From a virus (lineage: Duplodnaviria; Heunggongvirae; Uroviricota; Caudoviricetes): a DNA stretch of 8,338 nucleotides. Made by a program: the position numbers and the translations under genes. The stretch lies in IMG/VR virus record IMGVR_UViG_2671180846_000031, one strand, 5' to 3'. The notes beneath the pieces were generated by a model, which saw only the letters and a program-made list of their open reading frames with translations, searched no databases and had not been told where the DNA came from. This document shows positions 1 through 6,732 of this stretch, piece by piece; within the stretch, counting starts at the first letter, position 1, and each line of letters starts with the position of its first letter.

Positions 1-203
1 ACCGGCATTTCTCTGACTTCTCCGGTCTGCTTATCCACGCCAGCCTCAACATTGCGGGTGGAAAGATGATCCTGACCGGATGAAACGGATAACCCCATTG
101 CATCCAGACGGGTCTGAGACAATGGCCGGACACGGCAGCGGCAGTTCCAGCCATTGGGTGGGTAGTGTGTATTCCAGAACGGATCGTCATAGCGGAATAC
201 CAG
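1..203 (-). CDS. Head-morphogenesis protein, Mu F (gp30)-like, internal fragment running off the window start
   Basis: Minus-strand translation of 203->1 reads [67 protein letters not shown]. The PPxGWNCRC block is the motif I associate with the Mu F / SPP1 gp7 head-morphogenesis family, and portal followed by F is the Mu gene order. The fragment is cut off from the N-terminal part by N gaps. Confidence 0.55.
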
Positions 204-253
204 NNNNNNNNNNNNNNNNNNNNNNNNNNNNNNNNNNNNNNNNNNNNNNNNNN
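204..253. other. Assembly gap or masked run (50 N)
   Basis: Exactly 50 consecutive N in the sequence. Confidence 0.95.
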
Positions 254-502
254 CGCTGTCCACCACAATCTGCTTTCCCCACCATCCCAGCTTTTGCAGG
301 CGGGGTGTCAGTGTGCGGATAAATGCTTTCTGTGAAATCCCCTCATCAACAGCACGCTGCACTTCCGCCTGTAGTGTGGTCAGTACGTCCAGGCGTGCCA
401 CTTTTGCCGCCGTGAATGAACGGGCATGAACATCTGCGTTTGTTTCGAACCAGTTCCAGCTGATATGCGCCCCTTTGGCGCGGAAGTATGCCACCGCCTC
501 TT
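254..502 (-). repeat. Second, ~97%-identical copy of the F-gene N-terminal coding segment (duplicate of 565..813), bounded by N gaps on both sides
   Basis: Direct comparison of 254-502 with 565-813 shows about 8 mismatches in 249 bp. On the minus strand both copies translate to the same F-like peptide (...AYFRAKGAHISWNWFET[N/D]ADVHARSFTAAKVARLDVLTTLQAEVQRA[V/I]DEGISQKAFIRTLTPRLQKLGWWGKQIVVDS...); six of the differences are synonymous. Confidence 0.8.
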
Positions 503-552
503 NNNNNNNNNNNNNNNNNNNNNNNNNNNNNNNNNNNNNNNNNNNNNNNNNN
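503..552. other. Assembly gap or masked run (50 N)
   Basis: Exactly 50 consecutive N in the sequence. Confidence 0.95.
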
Positions 553-857
553 GCGTTACCGGCGCTGTCCACCACAATCTGCTTTCCCCACCATCCCAGC
601 TTTTGCAGGCGGGGGGTCAGTGTGCGGATAAATGCTTTCTGTGAAATCCCCTCATCAATGGCCCGTTGCACTTCCGCCTGTAGTGTGGTCAGTACGTCCA
701 GGCGTGCCACTTTTGCCGCCGTGAACGAACGGGCATGAACATCCGCGTCTGTTTCGAACCAGTTCCAGCTGATATGCGCCCCTTTGGCGCGGAAGTATGC
801 CACCGCCTCTTTTGAGGGAAGGGTGGCGGCATAACCTAAATCAATCCCCTGTGCCAT
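553..857 (-). CDS. Head-morphogenesis protein, Mu F (gp30)-like, N-terminal part (truncated by the gap at 503-552)
   Basis: ATG at 857..855 with AAGGGG Shine-Dalgarno about 8 nt upstream; the start overlaps the portal 3' end by 17 nt. Translation: MAQGIDLGYAATLPSKEAVAYFRAKGAHISWNWFETDADVHARSFTAAKVARLDVLTTLQAEVQRAIDEGISQKAFIRTLTPRLQKLGWWGKQIVVDSAGNA, which resembles the N-termini of Mu F-like proteins as I recall them. This frame is absent from the ORF track because the gap truncates it. Confidence 0.6.
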
Positions 858-2443
858 CCAGCATCCCCTTCATTTCCGCAGCAAACATGGCATCACTGAG
901 CAGCGTCATCAGGCGGGAATCATCCATTTCACGGTAAAGGGCAGGCAGGTCTGCCAGTGCCTCCGCCAGCCCCCGCGTTCTGATGGCATCAATGACCGGC
1001 TCCAGTACCGGGTCGATGGCCTCCTGTAACCGGCGGGCAGGCACCGCATCCCCCATGTCGTCCAGTTCATCTCGGGGGCTGCTNNNNNNNNNNNNNNNNN
1101 NNNNNNNNNNNNNNNNNNNNNNNNNNNNNNNNNTCCTGTTTTTCCGGTGGCATCTCTTTGTCTGTCTGAGCAGGTTCATTGCCACTCTGACGGACACGGA
1201 AGATGGCTTCACCGGGGGCAGGCTGTGGAATACCGGTCTGCTCCCGTACCCAGGGATCAGGAATATCCATCCCCGTACTGAGCTGCATCACCGCACTGGT
1301 GATTTTGGTGATATCCCCCGGCTCTTTTGTCTGGAAACAGATACGCGGCAGGCGACGGATATCAATGGCGTGGGCGGTGTTCAGGGCATACAGCGGATAC
1401 ACCAGATCGCGGTTCAGCGTGGCGGCCAGCTGACGTAAATCAGAATCCCTGATTTCCCGGCGCACCTCGTTATGCACTTCACCCAGCGAACGTGCGCCCT
1501 TGTCTCCGGCTTCCGTGGTCAGCGTGCCGCCGAGGATAGCTTTGGAGATGGAACGCTCCCCCCACGAAATCATGGTTTCAAACGGATCGGCCTGACCGTT
1601 CGCTGCCGCCTGAAACTCCAGCGACATCCCGGCCGGGATGATCCCGCCTGTACGTCGCCCGATATCCATCACCGCCCGCATCAGGGCGCTTTTCTGCTCC
1701 GGCGTTGCCCCGGACGGGTATTTACCGACCTTCATCGGCAGGCCGTACACCTCCAGAAATTCAGCCAGATCGCGCACGGAATAGTTTTTGAAAATGAACG
1801 GCCAGATAAGCGTTCTGACAAGCCCCGTCGCACCACCGTAGCCGGTGCGTGAACGTGACTGATGCACTATCCAGCCAAAGGGCTGAAACGCCACCCCGGC
1901 ATGGCTGCCGTCACGCAGCCGCAGTTCGCTCAAATCATCCGGGTTAAGGCAGAAATGCCCGCTGTCACGCCAGCGGATGGCGCGGATGATGTGCATTTTA
2001 CCGAGCATCCCGTGCTCAATCTCCATGCAGGAATAGCCTTTCAGGATGGCATCGGTGGCATCAAACAGCATGGCATCAAACCAGTCGGCGGAATGCAGAT
2101 ATTCGTCGAGCATTTCCGCGTCCTTTTTCTCATTCGCGCTGGCGTTCGGGGGCGGCTCAATACTCCAGGGCACGCCCTGAATGGCAAGACGTCGCTTGCC
2201 CAGCTCTGCAAAAAGGTGGGTATCCTTTTCTTCAATGTCAGCGGCCAGATCGGACTGGGCAATCAGATCGCCACGTTCAGCCCCGCGAAGGCACTGTGCC
2301 GCCCGGTTCGGGGTGATACCCGAGGCCGGATGTTCAATATAACGGCTGGCAATCTGCGGAATATCCAGCGCGGCGCTCTGCATCTCCGGGTCAAAGGAGA
2401 AAGGTTTTCCGTCAAGATCAATTATACGTCCCACTACCAGCAC
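841..2443 (-). CDS. Phage portal protein, Mu gp29-like (DUF935-type), interrupted by the N gap at 1084-1133
   Basis: A 458-aa ORF (1067..2443) plus an 80-aa C-terminal continuation (841..1083, ending ...EMKGMLDGTGD). The frames differ only because the gap length is arbitrary. It lies between the large terminase and F as in Mu. The ORF-track start is GTG at 2443, overlapping the terL stop (TAG 2434-2436); the true start is uncertain (next in-frame ATG at 2383, without a good SD). Confidence 0.75.
1084..1133. other. Assembly gap or masked run (50 N) inside the portal gene
   Basis: Exactly 50 consecutive N in the sequence. Confidence 0.95.
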
Positions 2444-4098
2444 CCCCGATCAAATTCATGATATGCCTCATCGTCATCACGATAACCGCCCTCCATGGCC
2501 CGCGACCGCTCCGGCAGCGCCTGACAGGCTGATTCATCCAGGATGAAGCCCTCCATGTATGACGCCCGGTTTGCCATACAGAGCGCCACGGCAAAATCGC
2601 CATGGCGGCGGGCGTTCACAGCCGTTGCGTTCTGGTCCTTCGTACGCCCCTTGTCAATTTGCGGGATACCGTTCACCACCTTCACATGGCGCAAATCATC
2701 AAGCGTGGTCTGATGGCGGGCGACGAGGATATTCTGATCCTCAAACTCGGCCTTCAGTTTTGGCATCCACTCGCCGTACCACTTCGGCGATAACATCACG
2801 CAGTCGATGATGTCCGGGCCAAAGGCCAGCAGCGCGGCTTCGGCCAGATAGCCGCCGTTACCGGTGGCGTCGAACGCCGCACCGACCAGCGCCGGAACGC
2901 GGGTCAGGATGTACATCATCACCTGCTCCTGCTGGGCATACGGCAGGTTGCGCAGCTCCACGCGAAACACCTCGCGTTTTGCCAGGGATTCAGTGATTTC
3001 CAGCAGCACAAAGCAGGAGAGGTCACCGATGCGGGCAAAGTCTTCCCCGAAGCTGAAGCGGGAACGGGGATTTAACGCCTCTAAAAGCGGTTTTAAATGT
3101 TCTTCACACCAGGTTAAAACCTCCGATTCACGCAGCCATGCGGCACGGCTGATGAAGTCGTCCGGGGCTTCAAACGTCAGAATCGGGATGTCGCGGAGCA
3201 TCGCCATTTCAATAAGCGCGTGAGGAATATAGGCACCGCCGGATTTTTTCGGGATACAGCCGTATTCCTCGTCGGCATCCTCACGGGTCGGGGCGTTTTT
3301 GTAGAGATCATCACGCCACTTCTGCTCGCTTTCCGGTGACCATTCGCGGCCGGTGACATAACAGATACGACGGTACAGCCCGTCCGCAATGGCATCATCC
3401 AGGGTAATGCGGTGGACGCTGTAATCCTTGCGCCCCTCGCGGGCTTCCTGAATGTACTGATTAAACAGATTATCGACGCCGTTATGCGTGGAGATAATAC
3501 GCACGCGCGCGCCCCACATGGTGAGCGCCATTGCCGCCTTGAGAAGCTCATCCAGTGACTCGTGGAACGCGGCTTCATCAATCACCACATCCCCCTGAAG
3601 GCCGCGCAGGTTTGACGGACGGGAAGACAGTGCCTGAATTTTGAATCCACTGTTCGGAAAGCGGATCATGTAGGTCAGAATTTCTTCTTTTTTATCCCGA
3701 TCCCAGAAGGTCTGCTCATACACATCAGCATCTGCCAGCTGGTTAAAGGCACGGGAGAACAGTGCGCAGGCAGAAATATATTCCAGCGCCATCTCCTGCT
3801 TTGACCCCACATAAAACACATTGCGGCCACCACGCCGCTTAGGCTTTGCGGCGGTAATGACGTTACGCCCGGCTTCCGCCCAGGTAAGCCCGGTGCGGCG
3901 GGATTTTTCCGCGATGCAGACCTCGCTTTCATCCTCAAACCAGCGGGCCTGATAATCCAGAAATACCGGCATATCACCGGGCAAATCAAGGCTGTCCGGC
4001 ACATCCACGCCCAGCAGGGCTTTTTCACCGGCCAGATCAATTTTGCGGGTGGAGACGGTATTCGTCAGTAAGGGGGAGAGTTCTTCGGCGTTATTCAT
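2434..4098 (-). CDS. terL: Terminase large subunit (Mu gp28-like)
   Basis: A 554-aa ORF whose ATG (4098..4096) overlaps the stop of the upstream small-terminase gene (ATGA). It carries a P-loop-like segment (EKSRRTGLTWAEAG) and a Walker B-like GDVVIDEAAF, followed by an acidic C-terminal half consistent with a nuclease domain. Size and position between the gp27-like gene and the portal match a phage TerL. Confidence 0.85.
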   Translation of the reverse strand: MNNAEELSPLLTNTVSTRKIDLAGEKALLGVDVPDSLDLPGDMPVFLDYQARWFEDESEVCIAEKSRRTGLTWAEAGRNVITAAKPKRRGGRNVFYVGSKQEMALEYISACALFSRAFNQLADADVYEQTFWDRDKKEEILTYMIRFPNSGFKIQALSSRPSNLRGLQGDVVIDEAAFHESLDELLKAAMALTMWGARVRIISTHNGVDNLFNQYIQEAREGRKDYSVHRITLDDAIADGLYRRICYVTGREWSPESEQKWRDDLYKNAPTREDADEEYGCIPKKSGGAYIPHALIEMAMLRDIPILTFEAPDDFISRAAWLRESEVLTWCEEHLKPLLEALNPRSRFSFGEDFARIGDLSCFVLLEITESLAKREVFRVELRNLPYAQQEQVMMYILTRVPALVGAAFDATGNGGYLAEAALLAFGPDIIDCVMLSPKWYGEWMPKLKAEFEDQNILVARHQTTLDDLRHVKVVNGIPQIDKGRTKDQNATAVNARRHGDFAVALCMANRASYMEGFILDESACQALPERSRAMEGGYRDDDEAYHEFDRGCW

Positions 4099-4679
4099 CA
4101 GGCTTTACCCAACAGAATCCCCTTAATACGGGACTCAAGCTGTTCACTCATCCCGTCCACGCCGCGCAGCTCGTCGGTGACCGCGTTTGCCATCTCTTCA
4201 GCAAATGCGGCCCGGATTTCTTTTTCACGCTTAATGCTGCGCTCGGCAGCACTTTCCGCACGCTGTGCTGACAGGAGGATGTCTTTGATGAGGCGCATAT
4301 CCACGTCGCTGTCGCTGTTCAGAGATTCGGTCGCGGCACGCAGGCGGCGGTACATCAGGGCGCGGGACATTTCCAGAATCAGCGCTGTGGTTTCACCGGT
4401 TGGCTTGTCCCCCAGTTCGGCCATCATGGCTTTTGTCTGCTCGCGTAAATCACGCAGGTTACGGGCAATCAGCTCATTACGGGAGGCTTCCCGGCTGATG
4501 GCCGCCGGTGAAAGCTGCTGCTCTTCCGGCAGGCCCGCCTCACGGATCAGACGGTTGATTTCCTCGCGGATCTGGACCTGCGTCAGACGTTTTTCACGCA
4601 GCATTTCCAGCAGCGGCTTACGGATGCTGTCGGGGAGCAAATCCACCTTGCGCACGCGGCCACGCGTCGGCTTGTCCAT
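4098..4679 (-). CDS. Mu gp27-like protein (DUF3486-type), putative terminase small subunit
   Basis: A 193-aa ORF with ATG at 4679 and AAGGGGG SD about 7 nt upstream. The basic N-terminus (RGRVRKVDLLPDSIRKPLLEMLREKRLTQVQIREE) looks like a DNA-binding region, followed by a charged helical C-terminal half. It sits immediately upstream of terL and is translationally coupled to it. Confidence 0.65.
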   Translation of the reverse strand: MDKPTRGRVRKVDLLPDSIRKPLLEMLREKRLTQVQIREEINRLIREAGLPEEQQLSPAAISREASRNELIARNLRDLREQTKAMMAELGDKPTGETTALILEMSRALMYRRLRAATESLNSDSDVDMRLIKDILLSAQRAESAAERSIKREKEIRAAFAEEMANAVTDELRGVDGMSEQLESRIKGILLGKA

Positions 4680-4681
4680 CG

Positions 4682-4972
4682 CTACCCCCTTGCGCGTGGT
4701 TTCTTCACACCCGGAACGCAGGCCCGGCCTTCCGCCACATCCTGCCCACGACCGGTCAGTTCCGCGATGAAATAACCGTTAATCAGAACGCGTTTGCGCA
4801 CCAGTCCCTGCTCGGCAAGCCAGGCAATGTGGGTGTGAACGGTGTCGCGGGACACGCGGTGGCCGTAATCATCCAGACAGTCCTGGAGCACGGATTCACC
4901 CAGTTCACCGTTGTAATCTGCCAGCGACCGCAGAATGACCAGACGCTGATCTTCAGTAATGAAATCACTCAT
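4682..4972 (-). CDS. Small conserved phage protein, Mu gp26-positional equivalent; function unknown
   Basis: A 96-aa ORF whose ATG (4972..4970) overlaps the stop of the upstream gene (ATGA), with AAGGA upstream. It is soluble (no TM segment) with a basic C-terminal tail (GVKKPRARG). No family is confidently recognised from sequence alone. Confidence 0.5.
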   Translation of the reverse strand: MSDFITEDQRLVILRSLADYNGELGESVLQDCLDDYGHRVSRDTVHTHIAWLAEQGLVRKRVLINGYFIAELTGRGQDVAEGRACVPGVKKPRARG

Positions 4973-5277
4973 TGCGTTTTTTTCCTTACAGCCTGCTCCA
5001 GCAGCAGTTCGTTCTGATAGGAGACAGAGCGGAGCGTGGCGTTCGTGGTTTTCAGTTCACCCCGCAGGGTCACGATTTCCACATTCAGACGGTTGACCTC
5101 AGCTTCTGTCGGCAGTGACGACAGGCGGGTTTCCACCTTCTCAACGCGGTCGGAGAGTTTTTCAAAGGCCTCGCGGGGGACAAACGTTTTGCGCATCAGC
5201 GCCATGAATATCCCGCCAGCGGTTGCCGTCGCCGAAAGGATCGGCACAACATAATCTTTAACGATGCTGACCCACAT
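4969..5277 (-). CDS. Small type-II membrane protein, Mu gp25-like; candidate lysis-associated protein (possible releasin)
   Basis: A 102-aa ORF with GGAGG SD about 8 nt upstream of ATG 5277. It has a single N-terminal TM helix (VVPILSATATAGGIFMALM) followed by a coiled-coil-like segment (EKLSDRVEKVETRLSSLPTEAEVNRLNVEIVTLRGELK). Position after the spanins matches Mu gp25. Confidence 0.55.
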   Translation of the reverse strand: MWVSIVKDYVVPILSATATAGGIFMALMRKTFVPREAFEKLSDRVEKVETRLSSLPTEAEVNRLNVEIVTLRGELKTTNATLRSVSYQNELLLEQAVRKKTQ

Positions 5278-5485
5278 GACGGGCCTCCATGATGTTCTGG
5301 CAGTTCACACAACGGATGGCATCCGGCACAGCAACAAGACGTGCGGCGGGGATCTCTCCGCCACAGTCCGCGCAGACACGTCTGCCCGGAGCATCCATTG
5401 CCCGGCGCTTACGTGTCAGCCGGTTACAAAGGGCGCGTTCTGATCCCCGCTCCATCACAGCCTGAGCACGATCTGAATCATCCAT
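5258..5485 (-). CDS. TraR/DksA-family C4-type zinc-finger protein
   Basis: Contains C-x2-C-x17-C-x2-C (CADCGGEIPAARLVAVPDAIRCVNC), the DksA/TraR zinc-ribbon spacing. Preferred start is ATG 5485 with AAGGA SD, 10 nt after the o-spanin stop, giving about 75 aa (TraR-sized). The ORF track extends to an upstream in-frame ATG at 5551, which would overlap the o-spanin. Confidence 0.7.
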   Translation of the reverse strand: MDDSDRAQAVMERGSERALCNRLTRKRRAMDAPGRRVCADCGGEIPAARLVAVPDAIRCVNCQNIMEARHVGQHR

Positions 5486-5495
5486 ACCTTTTTCC

Positions 5496-5867
5496 TTACT
5501 TCGTCTTTCCTGCCGGAACAGCAGGCGTTCCGGCCATATCAGTAAATTCATGTTGTCGCCGCGCCTCCAGACGACGAATACTGGCCTTGTCCACGTTGCA
5601 GTTCTTGATCACCGCCAGCAGTTGCAGGTTGTAAGTGACCGATGCCCCAAACGTGAACGGCTCCGGCGCAGGAGGGACCAGGCAGTCAGCCAGCCATTCA
5701 GCGGGGATCGGCACCGGCTTCACAGGCACGTATTTCACAGACGGCCCGGCGCACCCGATCAGCCACATCATCAGGAACAGGGGCAGAGGCCGCAGGCACT
5801 GCCGCCAGCGACCGGCGGACAACGCTCTGCTGCCCCTCGCTGTGCTGAATGTTCTGTTGTTTTTCAT
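5496..5867 (-). CDS. o-spanin (Rz1-like outer-membrane lipoprotein), overlapped architecture
   Basis: Alternate-frame ORF that begins inside the i-spanin gene and runs 200 nt past its stop. It has a lipobox LIGC and a proline-rich mature region (AGPSVKYVPVKPVPIPAEWLADCLVPPAPEPF). Tentative start is ATG 5867 with GAGG SD, but that gives an unusually long pre-lipobox region, so the start is uncertain. Confidence 0.55.
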   Translation of the reverse strand: MKNNRTFSTARGSRALSAGRWRQCLRPLPLFLMMWLIGCAGPSVKYVPVKPVPIPAEWLADCLVPPAPEPFTFGASVTYNLQLLAVIKNCNVDKASIRRLEARRQHEFTDMAGTPAVPAGKTK

Positions 5868-6198
5868 TCGTGGCCGCCTCACTGATTTGTGAAATGAGTT
5901 GCAGGGTGTGCTGCTGATTTGCCAGCACCTGACGCGCCTCATCCCGCTCACGCACAAGCACCTGATTATTGTCTTCAAGGCGCTGCGTCTTCTGGTGCAT
6001 TCCCCATATAGCGGCAACCAGTACAGCGATAATCCCCAGCGCCGCCATGCACGCCCCGGCAATCAGGGCCGGTAAGGCATTATTCACCGCAGCCACAGGA
6101 CACCCCGTAACAGCAGTACCGCACACAGCAGCGCTATCATGAGCGGTCGCCAGAAGCGGTTCAGACTTTCGGCAAGTCGTAGCGACATAACCATTCAT
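5698..6198 (-). CDS. i-spanin (Rz-like inner-membrane spanin subunit)
   Basis: A hydrophobic TM segment (ALPALIAGACMAALGIIAVLVAAIWG) is followed by a long charged, Gln-rich helical domain (QKTQRLEDNNQVLVRERDEARQVLANQQHTLQLISQISEAATNEKQQ...) and a C-terminal Cys pair (RRAVCEIRAC). It is immediately downstream of the endolysin and contains the out-of-frame o-spanin. The start is ambiguous: ATG 6198 (overlaps lys by 38 nt), GTG 6096 or 6087, or ATG 6048; the ORF-track start at 6219 is a TTG. Confidence 0.55.
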   Translation of the reverse strand: MNGYVATTCRKSEPLLATAHDSAAVCGTAVTGCPVAAVNNALPALIAGACMAALGIIAVLVAAIWGMHQKTQRLEDNNQVLVRERDEARQVLANQQHTLQLISQISEAATNEKQQNIQHSEGQQSVVRRSLAAVPAASAPVPDDVADRVRRAVCEIRACEAGADPR

Positions 6199-6661
6199 CC
6201 GCCGAACGGCGGGCCTCAAGGCCGGGGAGTTTCACCCCCTTTGAATAAATCCAGCGGATATACTGCTTACAGGACGCGGGCATCTGCCCGGCATTGATCA
6301 GGCGCAGAAGCGTGGAGTTGCGGAAGTTCGTTTCACCGGCCCAGAAGATCCACGAAGCCAGCGCCACCGTCTGACCACGGGTAAGCGGCACCTGAACACG
6401 CCGATCAATGGCCGCAAAGGCCCATTTCATGTCCTTTTCCAGTAGTTCCAGGCATTCTTCATCTGTCAGGGTCATACCCGGTTTCACATCCGGGCCGGTA
6501 TGGCCGTAACAGATGGTGGGTGTACCGGTGGGATCGATATACGTGGAGTTTTCTTTCCCTTCCCAGTAACCGGTGTAATGCGTGGCAATCGTGAACGTCC
6601 CGGCACCGGCCAGAACAAGGGCAATCAGCTTTTTACGCAGTGGTGCGGGGAGTTTTGGCAT
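6161..6661 (-). CDS. lys: Endolysin, T4-type lysozyme (GH24) with N-terminal signal-anchor-release (SAR) domain
   Basis: A 166-aa ORF with ATG at 6661. The N-terminus MPKLPAPLRKKLIALVLAGAGTFTIATHY has basic residues then a weakly hydrophobic Gly/Ala-rich helix, typical of SAR endolysins. It is followed by YWEGKENSTYIDPTGTPTICYGHTG, which has the Glu...Asp...Thr catalytic spacing of T4-lysozyme-like enzymes. Mu Lys is a known SAR endolysin. Confidence 0.8.
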   Translation of the reverse strand: MPKLPAPLRKKLIALVLAGAGTFTIATHYTGYWEGKENSTYIDPTGTPTICYGHTGPDVKPGMTLTDEECLELLEKDMKWAFAAIDRRVQVPLTRGQTVALASWIFWAGETNFRNSTLLRLINAGQMPASCKQYIRWIYSKGVKLPGLEARRSADEWLCRYDLPKV

Positions 6662-6662
6662 T

Positions 6663-6700
6663 GTTACGCTGTCTCATGATGTTCTCTGAGTCAGCGTAAC
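6663..6700 (-). promoter_or_regulatory. Perfect 9-bp inverted repeat (GTTACGCTG ... 20 nt ... CAGCGTAAC) abutting the lys start codon; candidate regulatory site or translation-occluding hairpin
   Basis: Plus-strand 6663-6671 gttacgctg and 6692-6700 cagcgtaac are exact reverse complements. On the minus-strand mRNA the 3' arm covers positions -2 to -10 relative to the lys ATG, where an SD would sit. No T-tract follows, so it is not a terminator. Confidence 0.35.
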
Positions 6701-6732
6701 GGTGAAGGAGAGGCGGCAGGCTTTGCGGAATA

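Follow-up and report, generated by a model that had tools for sequence, protein, structure and literature searches.

How is lysis of the host brought about in a Mu-like prophage whose late genes appear to include no canonical holin? The question is raised by IMG/VR virus record IMGVR_UViG_2671180846_000031, a stretch of 8,338 nucleotides (the window), in which positions 4969-6661 encode an endolysin (Lys), an inner-membrane and an outer-membrane spanin (i-spanin and o-spanin), a zinc-finger protein and a protein of the DUF2730 family. The window, whose genes lie on the minus strand, is ~99.9% identical to a Mu-like prophage present, with its lysis cassette intact, in 231 of 5426 complete Escherichia coli genomes (~4%); many of the carriers are O157:H7 and other Shiga toxin-producing E. 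coli (STEC). On sequence grounds this prophage is the Sp18 type of E. coli O157:H7 (O157 Sakai), which has been described as a Mu-like prophage and predicted to be intact (PMC2669165). In phage Mu itself, gp22 is an endolysin with an N-terminal signal-anchor-release (SAR) domain, gp23 and gp23.1 are the spanins, and gp25, the prototype of DUF2730, is needed for the release of gp22 (Chamblee et al. 2022, PMC9239132). This releasin route of lysis has so far been shown in phage Mu only. We consider it probable that the cassette in the window serves an Sp18-type Mu-like prophage as its late lysis module and, most likely working as in Mu, does without a canonical holin. The original prediction for this region, made from the sequence alone, had likened it to the holin-independent model of Mu, a match that is supported by homology, by gene order and by the presence of every feature that can be tested in sequence. 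The terms holin-less and releasin-dependent are taken over from Mu genetics (PMC9239132) and would apply to this cassette by analogy.

The product of lys is a muramidase whose catalytic triad, read from the translation as E34-X8-D43-X5-T49, is that of the T4/P21 lysozyme family. Its N-terminus reads MPKLPAPLRKK-LIALVLAGAGTFTIATHY: four basic residues (K3, R9, K10 and K11) lead into a weakly hydrophobic segment rich in Gly, Ala, Ser and Thr, and the catalytic E34 lies five residues past the end of this segment. These are the sequence features of an N-terminal SAR segment, and throughout the clade this composition is kept, as is the basic N-tail. At this level the PF00959 match, the triad, the composition of the segment and its basic lead bear out the SAR-type endolysin of the original prediction. 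All homologues of Lys carry G/A-rich N-terminal segments, with basic residues that vary in number and placement. The best solved relatives are R21 of phage 21 (3HDE) and RrrD of E. coli (4ZPU), both with E 1e-24, and the alignments with them begin at residue 5 and thus span the SAR segment; the crystal structure of full-length R21 includes the SAR helix (PMC6024848). Residues 1-50 of Lys are free of cysteine, the first being C51, which places Lys with the R21 type and not with that of P1 Lyz, caged by a disulfide and with a cysteine inside its SAR segment. The likeness to R21 (PDB 3HDE/3HDF) consists in an N-terminal MP..LRK and a G/A-rich SAR segment without cysteine; phage 21 differs in that a pinholin with two transmembrane domains (TMDs), S21-68, is encoded upstream of R, and this cassette has no such gene.

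The second component that the Mu system leads one to expect is the DUF2730 protein. The match to PF10805 covers positions 3-101 of the 102-position profile, which is the full length of the domain. A single TMD spans about residues 9-28 (Kyte-Doolittle, KD, hydropathy 1.8 for residues 10-28) and ends in an M28-R29-K30 junction, and the helical cytoplasmic domain that follows carries the C-terminal motif S.Q.ELLLE.AV; the RK junction and the C-terminal motif are both shared with Mu gp25. The net charge is 0 ahead of the TMD and +2 in the 16 residues after it, a distribution from which an N-out/C-in topology is predicted, and not the type-II orientation that had been proposed from the sequence at first reading. 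The topology of Mu gp25 has likewise been reported as N-out/C-in (PMC9239132). Among the annotated genes that follow lys, that for DUF2730 comes fourth, or fifth if a small open reading frame (ORF) discussed below is included, and in Mu-like phages DUF2730 genes lie no more than five genes from the endolysin gene (PMC9239132). The protein has both the sequence and the position that mark the Mu-type releasin system. An AlphaFold2 (AF2) model consists of three helices (residues 3-30, 35-53 and 58-101; mean predicted local distance difference test score, pLDDT, 73.5), and a Foldseek search of the PDB with this model returned no match and so no mechanistic lead. As a separate observation, the TMD, VVPILSATATAGGIFMALM, is rich in Ala, Gly, Thr and Ser and resembles a SAR segment.

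A two-component spanin completes the cassette beside the endolysin. Behind its N-terminal TMD the i-spanin has a helical periplasmic domain with two cysteines towards the C-terminus. The o-spanin begins with a lipoprotein signal, has its lipobox, LIGC, at Cys39 with Ala at +2, and has a mature part of 85 aa that contains 11 prolines (13%). The two genes share 170 nt and the o-spanin gene runs 202 nt past that of the i-spanin, an 'overlapped' architecture. The overlapping spanins with a LIGC lipobox and a Pro-rich outer component had been recognised in the original prediction, and the matches to phrog_214 and PF23793 agree with that assignment. We conclude from comparative sequence data that the i-spanin starts at GTG 6096: this codon is ATG in the clade of a Citrobacter/Salmonella locus (L004), and a conserved GGGG lies 6 nt upstream. 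Two alternative starts, GTG 6126 of the RefSeq annotation and TTG 6219 of the longest ORF, were rejected; upstream of 6096 their frame has a ratio of nonsynonymous to synonymous substitution rates (dN/dS) of 2.4-2.7, and it contains a stop in one relative (L037). For the o-spanin the true start is likely at 5867, an ATG with GAGG 9 nt upstream, and other members of the clade share both the initial MK(N/S)N and the lipobox.

Scanning a DUF2730 alignment against IMG/VR and GTDB genomes yielded 69 loci; a scan of genome contigs gave only 3, and a word-based protein search returned only DUF2730 relatives of at least 72% identity. The 69 loci comprise an Sp18-like clade, several intermediate groups (~32-36% DUF2730 identity) and the Mu clade, and all clades have the order C-lys-(spanins)-(zinc finger)-DUF2730-gp26-gp27-terL. 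The identities between the cassette and Mu are 39% for Lys and gp22, 27% for the i-spanin and gp23, 42% for the o-spanin and gp23.1 and 34% for DUF2730 and gp25 (BLASTP E 5e-18), while the zinc-finger protein matches gp24 weakly; the alignments with Mu Lys, gp23 and gp25 that had been suggested as a check are among these. Judged in this way, the five cassette genes are syntenic orthologues of those for Mu gp22, 23, 23.1, 24 and 25. The two phages also share the gene order behind a C-type activator, the succession of gp26, gp27 and terminase genes that follows, and the absence of a multi-TMD late protein. We therefore assign the cassette to the known Mu-type, releasin-based lysis system, as a diverged member in a well-known prophage and not as a new kind of system. 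In a published table of 34 active phages the enterobacterial entries are close Mu relatives only, with no Sp18-type element (PMC9239132), and the cassette is therefore a diverged member outside that earlier study. It is a natural variant, at ~35-40% identity for the endolysin and DUF2730, that is ready to serve as a second test case of the releasin route.

The differences from Mu are of several kinds. Mu has Mor plus C where a single Mor/C protein is found here, and the Sp18-like elements are without the Mu middle genes 18-20, among them the genes of two Mu membrane proteins once proposed to be holin and antiholin. The basic cluster of Lys is K3/R9/K10/K11, against K6/K7/K9 in Mu gp22, and the SAR segment has two to three glycines in place of six in a row. 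In DUF2730 the cytoplasmic domain has a net charge of +3, against -1 in gp25. The gene 24 homologue encodes a clear TraR/DksA zinc finger, unlike that of Mu, and an extra ORF of 34-36 aa with a single TMD lies between lys and the i-spanin gene (the mini-ORF), which is absent from the Mu clade. Two questions can be put to the cassette, namely which features of the endolysin N-tail make release dependent on a releasin, and whether the DUF2730 mechanism requires its cytoplasmic domain to be acidic, as it is not here.

Holins are small late membrane proteins, usually with two or three TMDs and a charged C-terminus, and are lethal on membrane depolarisation; class III holins have one TMD and a large periplasmic domain. 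Among all ORFs of at least 20 aa on both strands of 4900-6750, none has two credible hydrophobic segments by the Kyte-Doolittle scan with which TMDs were called throughout, in keeping with the earlier claim that the region contains no holin-like ORF with two or three TMDs. A search of the late region of the complete prophage (~39 kb, read in strain 90-3040, where it is inserted in comEC; locus L003) found no multi-TMD ORF, so that the holin suggested as a possible refutation, one lying in gaps or elsewhere in the late operon, did not appear there. Between gemA and the gp27 gene, each of the 69 related loci is free of unassigned ORFs with at least two strong TMDs, and none of the TMD proteins scanned matched a holin family. 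The gaps of the window were considered as a hiding place and rejected: the three runs of 50 N (204-253, 503-552 and 1084-1133) fall within the portal and F genes, where the complete prophage has no such gene, and the lysis region itself is contiguous and free of N. The annotated proteins of the complete prophage with strong hydrophobic segments are only the i-spanin, DUF2730, the early protein orf98, which is variable among relatives, a DUF1378 protein of 60 aa from a moron block of lambdoid type close to gin/com, and a 61-aa early protein to which we return below. In Mu, gp19, gp20 and gp25 have been shown not to be holins (PMC9239132).

Our data, coupled with the genetics of Mu, suggest a model for lysis by Sp18-type prophages. 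A single activator of the Mor/C family would turn on one late operon headed by lys. Lys would be exported by Sec and would stay tethered to the inner membrane by its weakly hydrophobic SAR segment, as in the R21 and Mu endolysins, with the R9-K10-K11 cluster locking the tether on the cytoplasmic side; with Glu34 about five residues from the membrane, the tethered enzyme would be inactive. We propose that DUF2730, a single-pass protein with N-out/C-in topology, accumulates from the same transcript and, by analogy with Mu gp25, helps the SAR segment to leave the bilayer. The freed Lys could then refold and degrade the cell wall, whereupon the overlapped pair of i-spanin and o-spanin would disrupt the outer membrane.

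Several observations weigh against a mode of lysis as in Mu. The TMD predictions come from Kyte-Doolittle hydropathy alone; a signal-peptidase-like site is present in Lys at A18-G19-A20, ahead of G21; and a conserved ORF with a single TMD, the mini-ORF, lies within the cassette. In Mu the need for gp25 is imposed by K6 and K7 of gp22 and not by K9 (PMC9239132). In the BLAST alignment K6 and K7 of Mu fall opposite A6 and P7 of Lys, whose basic residues are not position-equivalent, and a dependence of the gp25 type can therefore not be transferred with confidence. Two related loci (L005 and L041) encode a Lys with Ser at the position equivalent to K7 and still keep DUF2730, which calls for caution in a direct transfer of the K6/K7 rule of Mu. 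The net charge of +3 in the cytoplasmic domain of DUF2730 (14 K/R and 11 D/E) is hard to reconcile with the 'acidic microenvironment' model considered for Mu gp25 (PMC9239132). DUF2730 genes also adjoin those of endolysins without a SAR domain (PMC9239132). As the protein is kept both there and in L005/L041, DUF2730 may be doing something more general, and the pattern in L005/L041, together with that in two further loci (L070 and L071) described below, hints at a role beyond overcoming the K6/K7 lock.

The mini-ORF is the one element of the cassette without precedent, and it requires a correction of the original prediction, which had held the gp25-like protein to be the only other membrane protein of the region. 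It lies in the third frame. Its first 28-34 nt are shared with the 3' end of lys, its TGA falls in the region where the i-spanin gene starts, and its place corresponds to that of the 5' end of Mu gene 23. Comparison of the Sp18-like loci shows it open in all 52 that cover the site, with 23 peptide variants that differ by conservative substitutions. Over the 64 nt not shared with lys, the changes at the three codon positions number 15/10/23 and dN/dS is ~0.5, against 2.4-2.7 for the RefSeq frame that extends the i-spanin, while the lys frame contains stops; random mutation to the observed divergence keeps the hydrophobicity of the peptide in 1.6-6% of trials per lineage pair (P 0.016-0.06). From these comparisons the frame is probably coding, in our estimate. 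It was found in the Sp18-like lineage only, a metagenome scan gave close relatives alone (83-100% identical), and its sole earlier calls come from a few assemblies of Shigella sonnei, under the name 'Uncharacterised protein'.

What the mini-ORF does is suggested less clearly by its sequence, which has one hydrophobic segment of 19 residues, lacks a charged C-tail and matched no Pfam or PHROG family. Comparison with Mu gp20, Mu gp25 and orf98 gave no significant similarity, and comparison with the TMD of Mu gp23 gave a weak one (GVLW against GGLW; shuffle P 0.025). The C-terminal LRGVLWL, its most invariant part, is encoded where the i-spanin gene has its Shine-Dalgarno sequence and start, and part of the conservation is therefore not at the level of the peptide. 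The mini-ORF may be what is left of the ancestral start of the i-spanin and persist as a bridging ORF that couples translation of lys to that of the i-spanin, or it may be a genuine small membrane protein. A third possibility, that the mini-ORF and the i-spanin form one frameshifted gene with two TMDs, was rejected because the stop is kept in 52/52 loci and the periplasmic domain would end up in the cytoplasm.

It is doubtful that the mini-ORF is both real and active in lysis, whether as a minimal trigger or timer, as a co-factor of DUF2730 in anchor release, or as a regulator of the spanins or the endolysin; were it so, Sp18-type prophages would be a variant of the holin-free Mu system with a component absent from Mu. 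A precedent is Lcc6 of the Shewanella phage LambdaSo, a single-TMD protein of 65 aa that is needed for lysis by a SAR endolysin (bioRxiv 10.1101/2024.01.23.576932). Lcc6 shows that small single-TMD proteins can be essential, and a role of the mini-ORF in lysis is therefore possible. The likeness, which is one of description, lies in a small single-TMD protein within a SAR-endolysin system; Lcc6 differs in being encoded far from the lysis genes and in acting with a pinholin.

The same evidence bears on the proposal that the cassette is not truly holin-less, which we regard as unlikely. On this proposal the mini-ORF would be a minimal trigger resembling a holin or pinholin, a timing regulator or a co-factor of endolysin release. 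Its conservation and retained hydrophobicity, its place in the late operon, where overlaps chain it to lys and the i-spanin gene, and the example of Lcc6 all favour such a role. Set against them are its one TMD in 34 aa and the lack of any known holin family match, the share of its LRGVLWL conservation that is owed to the i-spanin start, the possibility that it is a bridging ORF or the relic of an ancestral i-spanin 5' end, and the small TMD proteins gp19 and gp20 of Mu, which proved not to be holins (PMC9239132). Less likely still, the missing holin would be the 61-aa early protein, encoded at L003 10882-11067, which lies ~240 nt outside the window on its right. Its two strong TMDs (MIKR-TMD-loop-TMD-RITGKHK), KR N-terminus and basic C-tail give it a profile like that of a class II holin, but its sole match is phrog_19804, a PHROG without functional annotation, and its gene lies outside the late operon. 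The ORF is present in only 7 of the ~20 Sp18-like loci that hold at least 3 kb upstream of gemA, and the remaining loci of this set have no small multi-TMD ORF in that upstream stretch. An ORF that is early and present in few relatives is, we conclude, an accessory gene and not a conserved lysis component, and as a holin candidate it was set aside as unlikely.

The cassette of phage P2 offers a further comparison for this position. It has the order Y-K-lysA-lysB-lysC, with the holin Y, a soluble endolysin and a multi-TMD LysA. Like P2, the Sp18-type cassette has overlapped spanins of the lysB/lysC kind, with an o-spanin in the Pfam family LysC (PF23793), and a gene for a membrane protein between the endolysin and the i-spanin, lysA there and the mini-ORF here. 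LysA is much larger and has several TMDs, and the mini-ORF showed similarity to no family.

If lysis in Sp18-type prophages does follow the Mu scheme, DUF2730 would promote the release of the endolysin. We consider it improbable that the protein has instead no role in endolysin release and serves, for example, in head assembly or packaging, with Lys leaving the membrane spontaneously and late-gene expression alone setting the timing. The DUF2730 gene adjoins the terminase genes, and its stop shares 4 nt (ATGA) with the start of the gp26-like gene, an overlap from which we infer that the two are translationally coupled. Members of the family stand beside endolysins that lack SAR domains (PMC9239132), and in L070 and L071 (4320-5060) DUF2730 directly adjoins a truncated lys, the intervening spanin and zinc-finger genes being absent. 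The basic residues of Lys are arranged unlike K6/K7 of Mu, and the charge that DUF2730 bears in its cytoplasmic domain is not conserved. All this would fit a function unrelated to endolysin release, but DUF2730 here is of the Mu type by its similarity to gp25 (E 5e-18) and by the shared motifs at the TMD junction and C-terminus, and it is paired with a SAR muramidase of the Mu type. Mu gp25 also promoted the release of unrelated SAR endolysins, and SAR domains with added positive charge at the N-terminus are reported to become locked in the bilayer (PMC9239132). The SAR segment of Lys is flanked by four basic residues. These points favour a role in endolysin release for DUF2730.

It is very unlikely that the N-terminus of Lys is a cleavable Sec signal (n-region MPKLPAPLRKK, h-region LIALVL, cut after AGA) and Lys a soluble secreted endolysin: the A-x-A-like site at A18-G19-A20 does follow a short hydrophobic core and a basic n-region, but we argue for a SAR segment because the strong hydrophobic core is only six residues long, because the weak G/A/T-rich stretch continues 8-9 residues past the putative cleavage site, and because the whole N-terminus aligns with the homologous SAR segment of R21, which has an AIA motif there too and retains the segment in the solved full-length enzyme, and an active muramidase secreted immediately would leave lysis untimed. 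R21 without its SAR segment is said to have been inactive in work by Sun et al. in 2009.

The releasin-type cassette is embedded in a late operon whose layout follows that of Mu (coordinates of all features are collected in the table). In the direction of transcription the order is GemA, terminator, Mor/C activator, gap, lys, i-spanin, o-spanin, zinc finger, DUF2730, gp26-like, gp27-like, large terminase and portal. From lys through terL neighbouring genes overlap or lie no more than 10 nt apart, which indicates one operon. The activator is closer to Mu C (39% identity) than to Mu Mor (27%). It is the sole Mor-family gene found in the prophage, and RefSeq annotates one in the complete element. 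Sp18-like elements have this single Mor/C gene directly after gemA, without a separate Mor and without the gp18-20 middle operon, which implies a two-tier transcription cascade as against the three tiers of Mu.

Mu Plys sits between C and gene 22 according to the curated Mu record, and by analogy the corresponding 71 nt of the window are presumed to hold a C-dependent late promoter. The gap contains no ORF. A sigma-70 promoter scan found no match in it upstream of lys, as expected because the promoter would be activator-dependent. The zinc-finger gene sits at the position of Mu gene 24 and has an AAGGA Shine-Dalgarno sequence ahead of its start; the weak match of its product to Mu gp24 is of the form CxxC...CxxC. 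That a TraR-like gene precedes a gp25-like protein of 102 aa, as first read from the sequence, is confirmed by the matches to PF01258 and PF10805. The gp26-like gene is syntenic with Mu gp26 in all loci compared. The gp27-like gene, spaced 2 nt and -1 nt from its neighbours, is where the lysis block ends and the packaging genes begin within the same operon.

Table. Features of the lysis region and its flanks, in window coordinates, listed in the order of transcription.
Feature	Position	Strand	Match or remark
orf98, 98 aa, early region, one N-terminal TMD	7734-8030	-	phrog_17269; just upstream of gemA
GemA	7737-7228	-	upstream of terminator
Intrinsic terminator	7200..7223	-	9-bp stem AAATCCCGC...GCGGGATTT, then TTATTTT; just after gemA, upstream of the C-like gene
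Mor/C-family late transcription activator, 141 aa	6733..7158	-	PF08765, E 3e-32
Gap between C-like gene and lys, 71 nt	6662..6732	-	presumed C-dependent late promoter and lys leader
lys, GH24 muramidase with N-terminal SAR-type signal-anchor, 166 aa	6161..6661	-	PF00959, E 6e-37; phrog_7 endolysin, E 8e-51
SAR-type segment LIALVLAGAGTFTIATHY, lys codons 12-29	6575..6628	-	KD hydropathy 1.5; 9/18 residues G/A/S/T
Mini-ORF MVMSLRLAESLNRFWRPLMIALLCAVLLLRGVLWLR, 36 aa (34 aa from near-invariant ATG 6188)	6084..6194	-	one predicted TMD, KD hydropathy 2.3
i-spanin, 132 aa from GTG 6096	5698..6096	-	phrog_214 Rz-like spanin, E 1e-32; N-terminal TMD ALIAGACMAALGIIAVLVAAIWGM
o-spanin, 123 aa, +1 frame	5496..5867	-	LysC PF23793, E 2e-16; phrog_3001, E 8e-42
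TraR/DksA-type C4 zinc-finger protein, 75 aa	5258..5485	-	PF01258, E 8e-12; phrog_54, E 9e-20
DUF2730 protein, 102 aa, orthologue of Mu gp25 'releasin'	4969..5277	-	PF10805, E 7e-20; phrog_736, E 9e-32
gp26-like winged-helix protein, 96 aa	4682..4972	-	phrog_436, E 1e-40
gp27-like small terminase subunit	4098..4679	-	PF11985 Phage_Mu_Gp27, E 2e-33

The analysis bears on existing annotation. In RefSeq (L003 13522-14152) the i-spanin is named 'endopeptidase', and the o-spanin is started at an internal GTG (5738), giving a product of 80 aa without the signal peptide and lipobox. The corrections that follow concern the start and name of the i-spanin, the o-spanin call that lacks the lipobox, and the mini-ORF, which is absent.

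Two variants of Lys were seen among the relatives. In L065 (5593-6237) the cytoplasmic tail of a related Lys is lengthened, immediately before the SAR segment, by a tandem (SPK)n expansion, KSPKSPKSPKSPKSPKSPKSPKS, which places ~7 extra lysines exactly at the site of releasin dependence in Mu genetics. In L016 (3417-3995), a single IMG/VR contig, a frameshift joins Lys to the frame of the mini-ORF (…CRYDLPKSLNRFWRPLMIALLCAVLLLRGVLWLR); this would give the endolysin a hydrophobic C-terminal tail, and it could be a sequencing error.

At its left end (1-1133) the window is divided by its 50-N runs into pieces that map to overlapping stretches of the F (head morphogenesis) gene, with 254-502 duplicating part of 553-1083; these partly duplicated F pieces are an artefact of draft-assembly scaffolding and not biology. 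The same element is carried by two records of Stx phages, where it is annotated as 'inserted Bacteriophage Mu-like phage'. Beyond the window, at L003 36957-39606, genes for DUF6645, DUF1378 (60 aa, one TMD) and DUF826 lie between gin and com/mom; genes of this type commonly belong to the late regions of lambdoid Stx prophages, and the block looks like a moron insertion.

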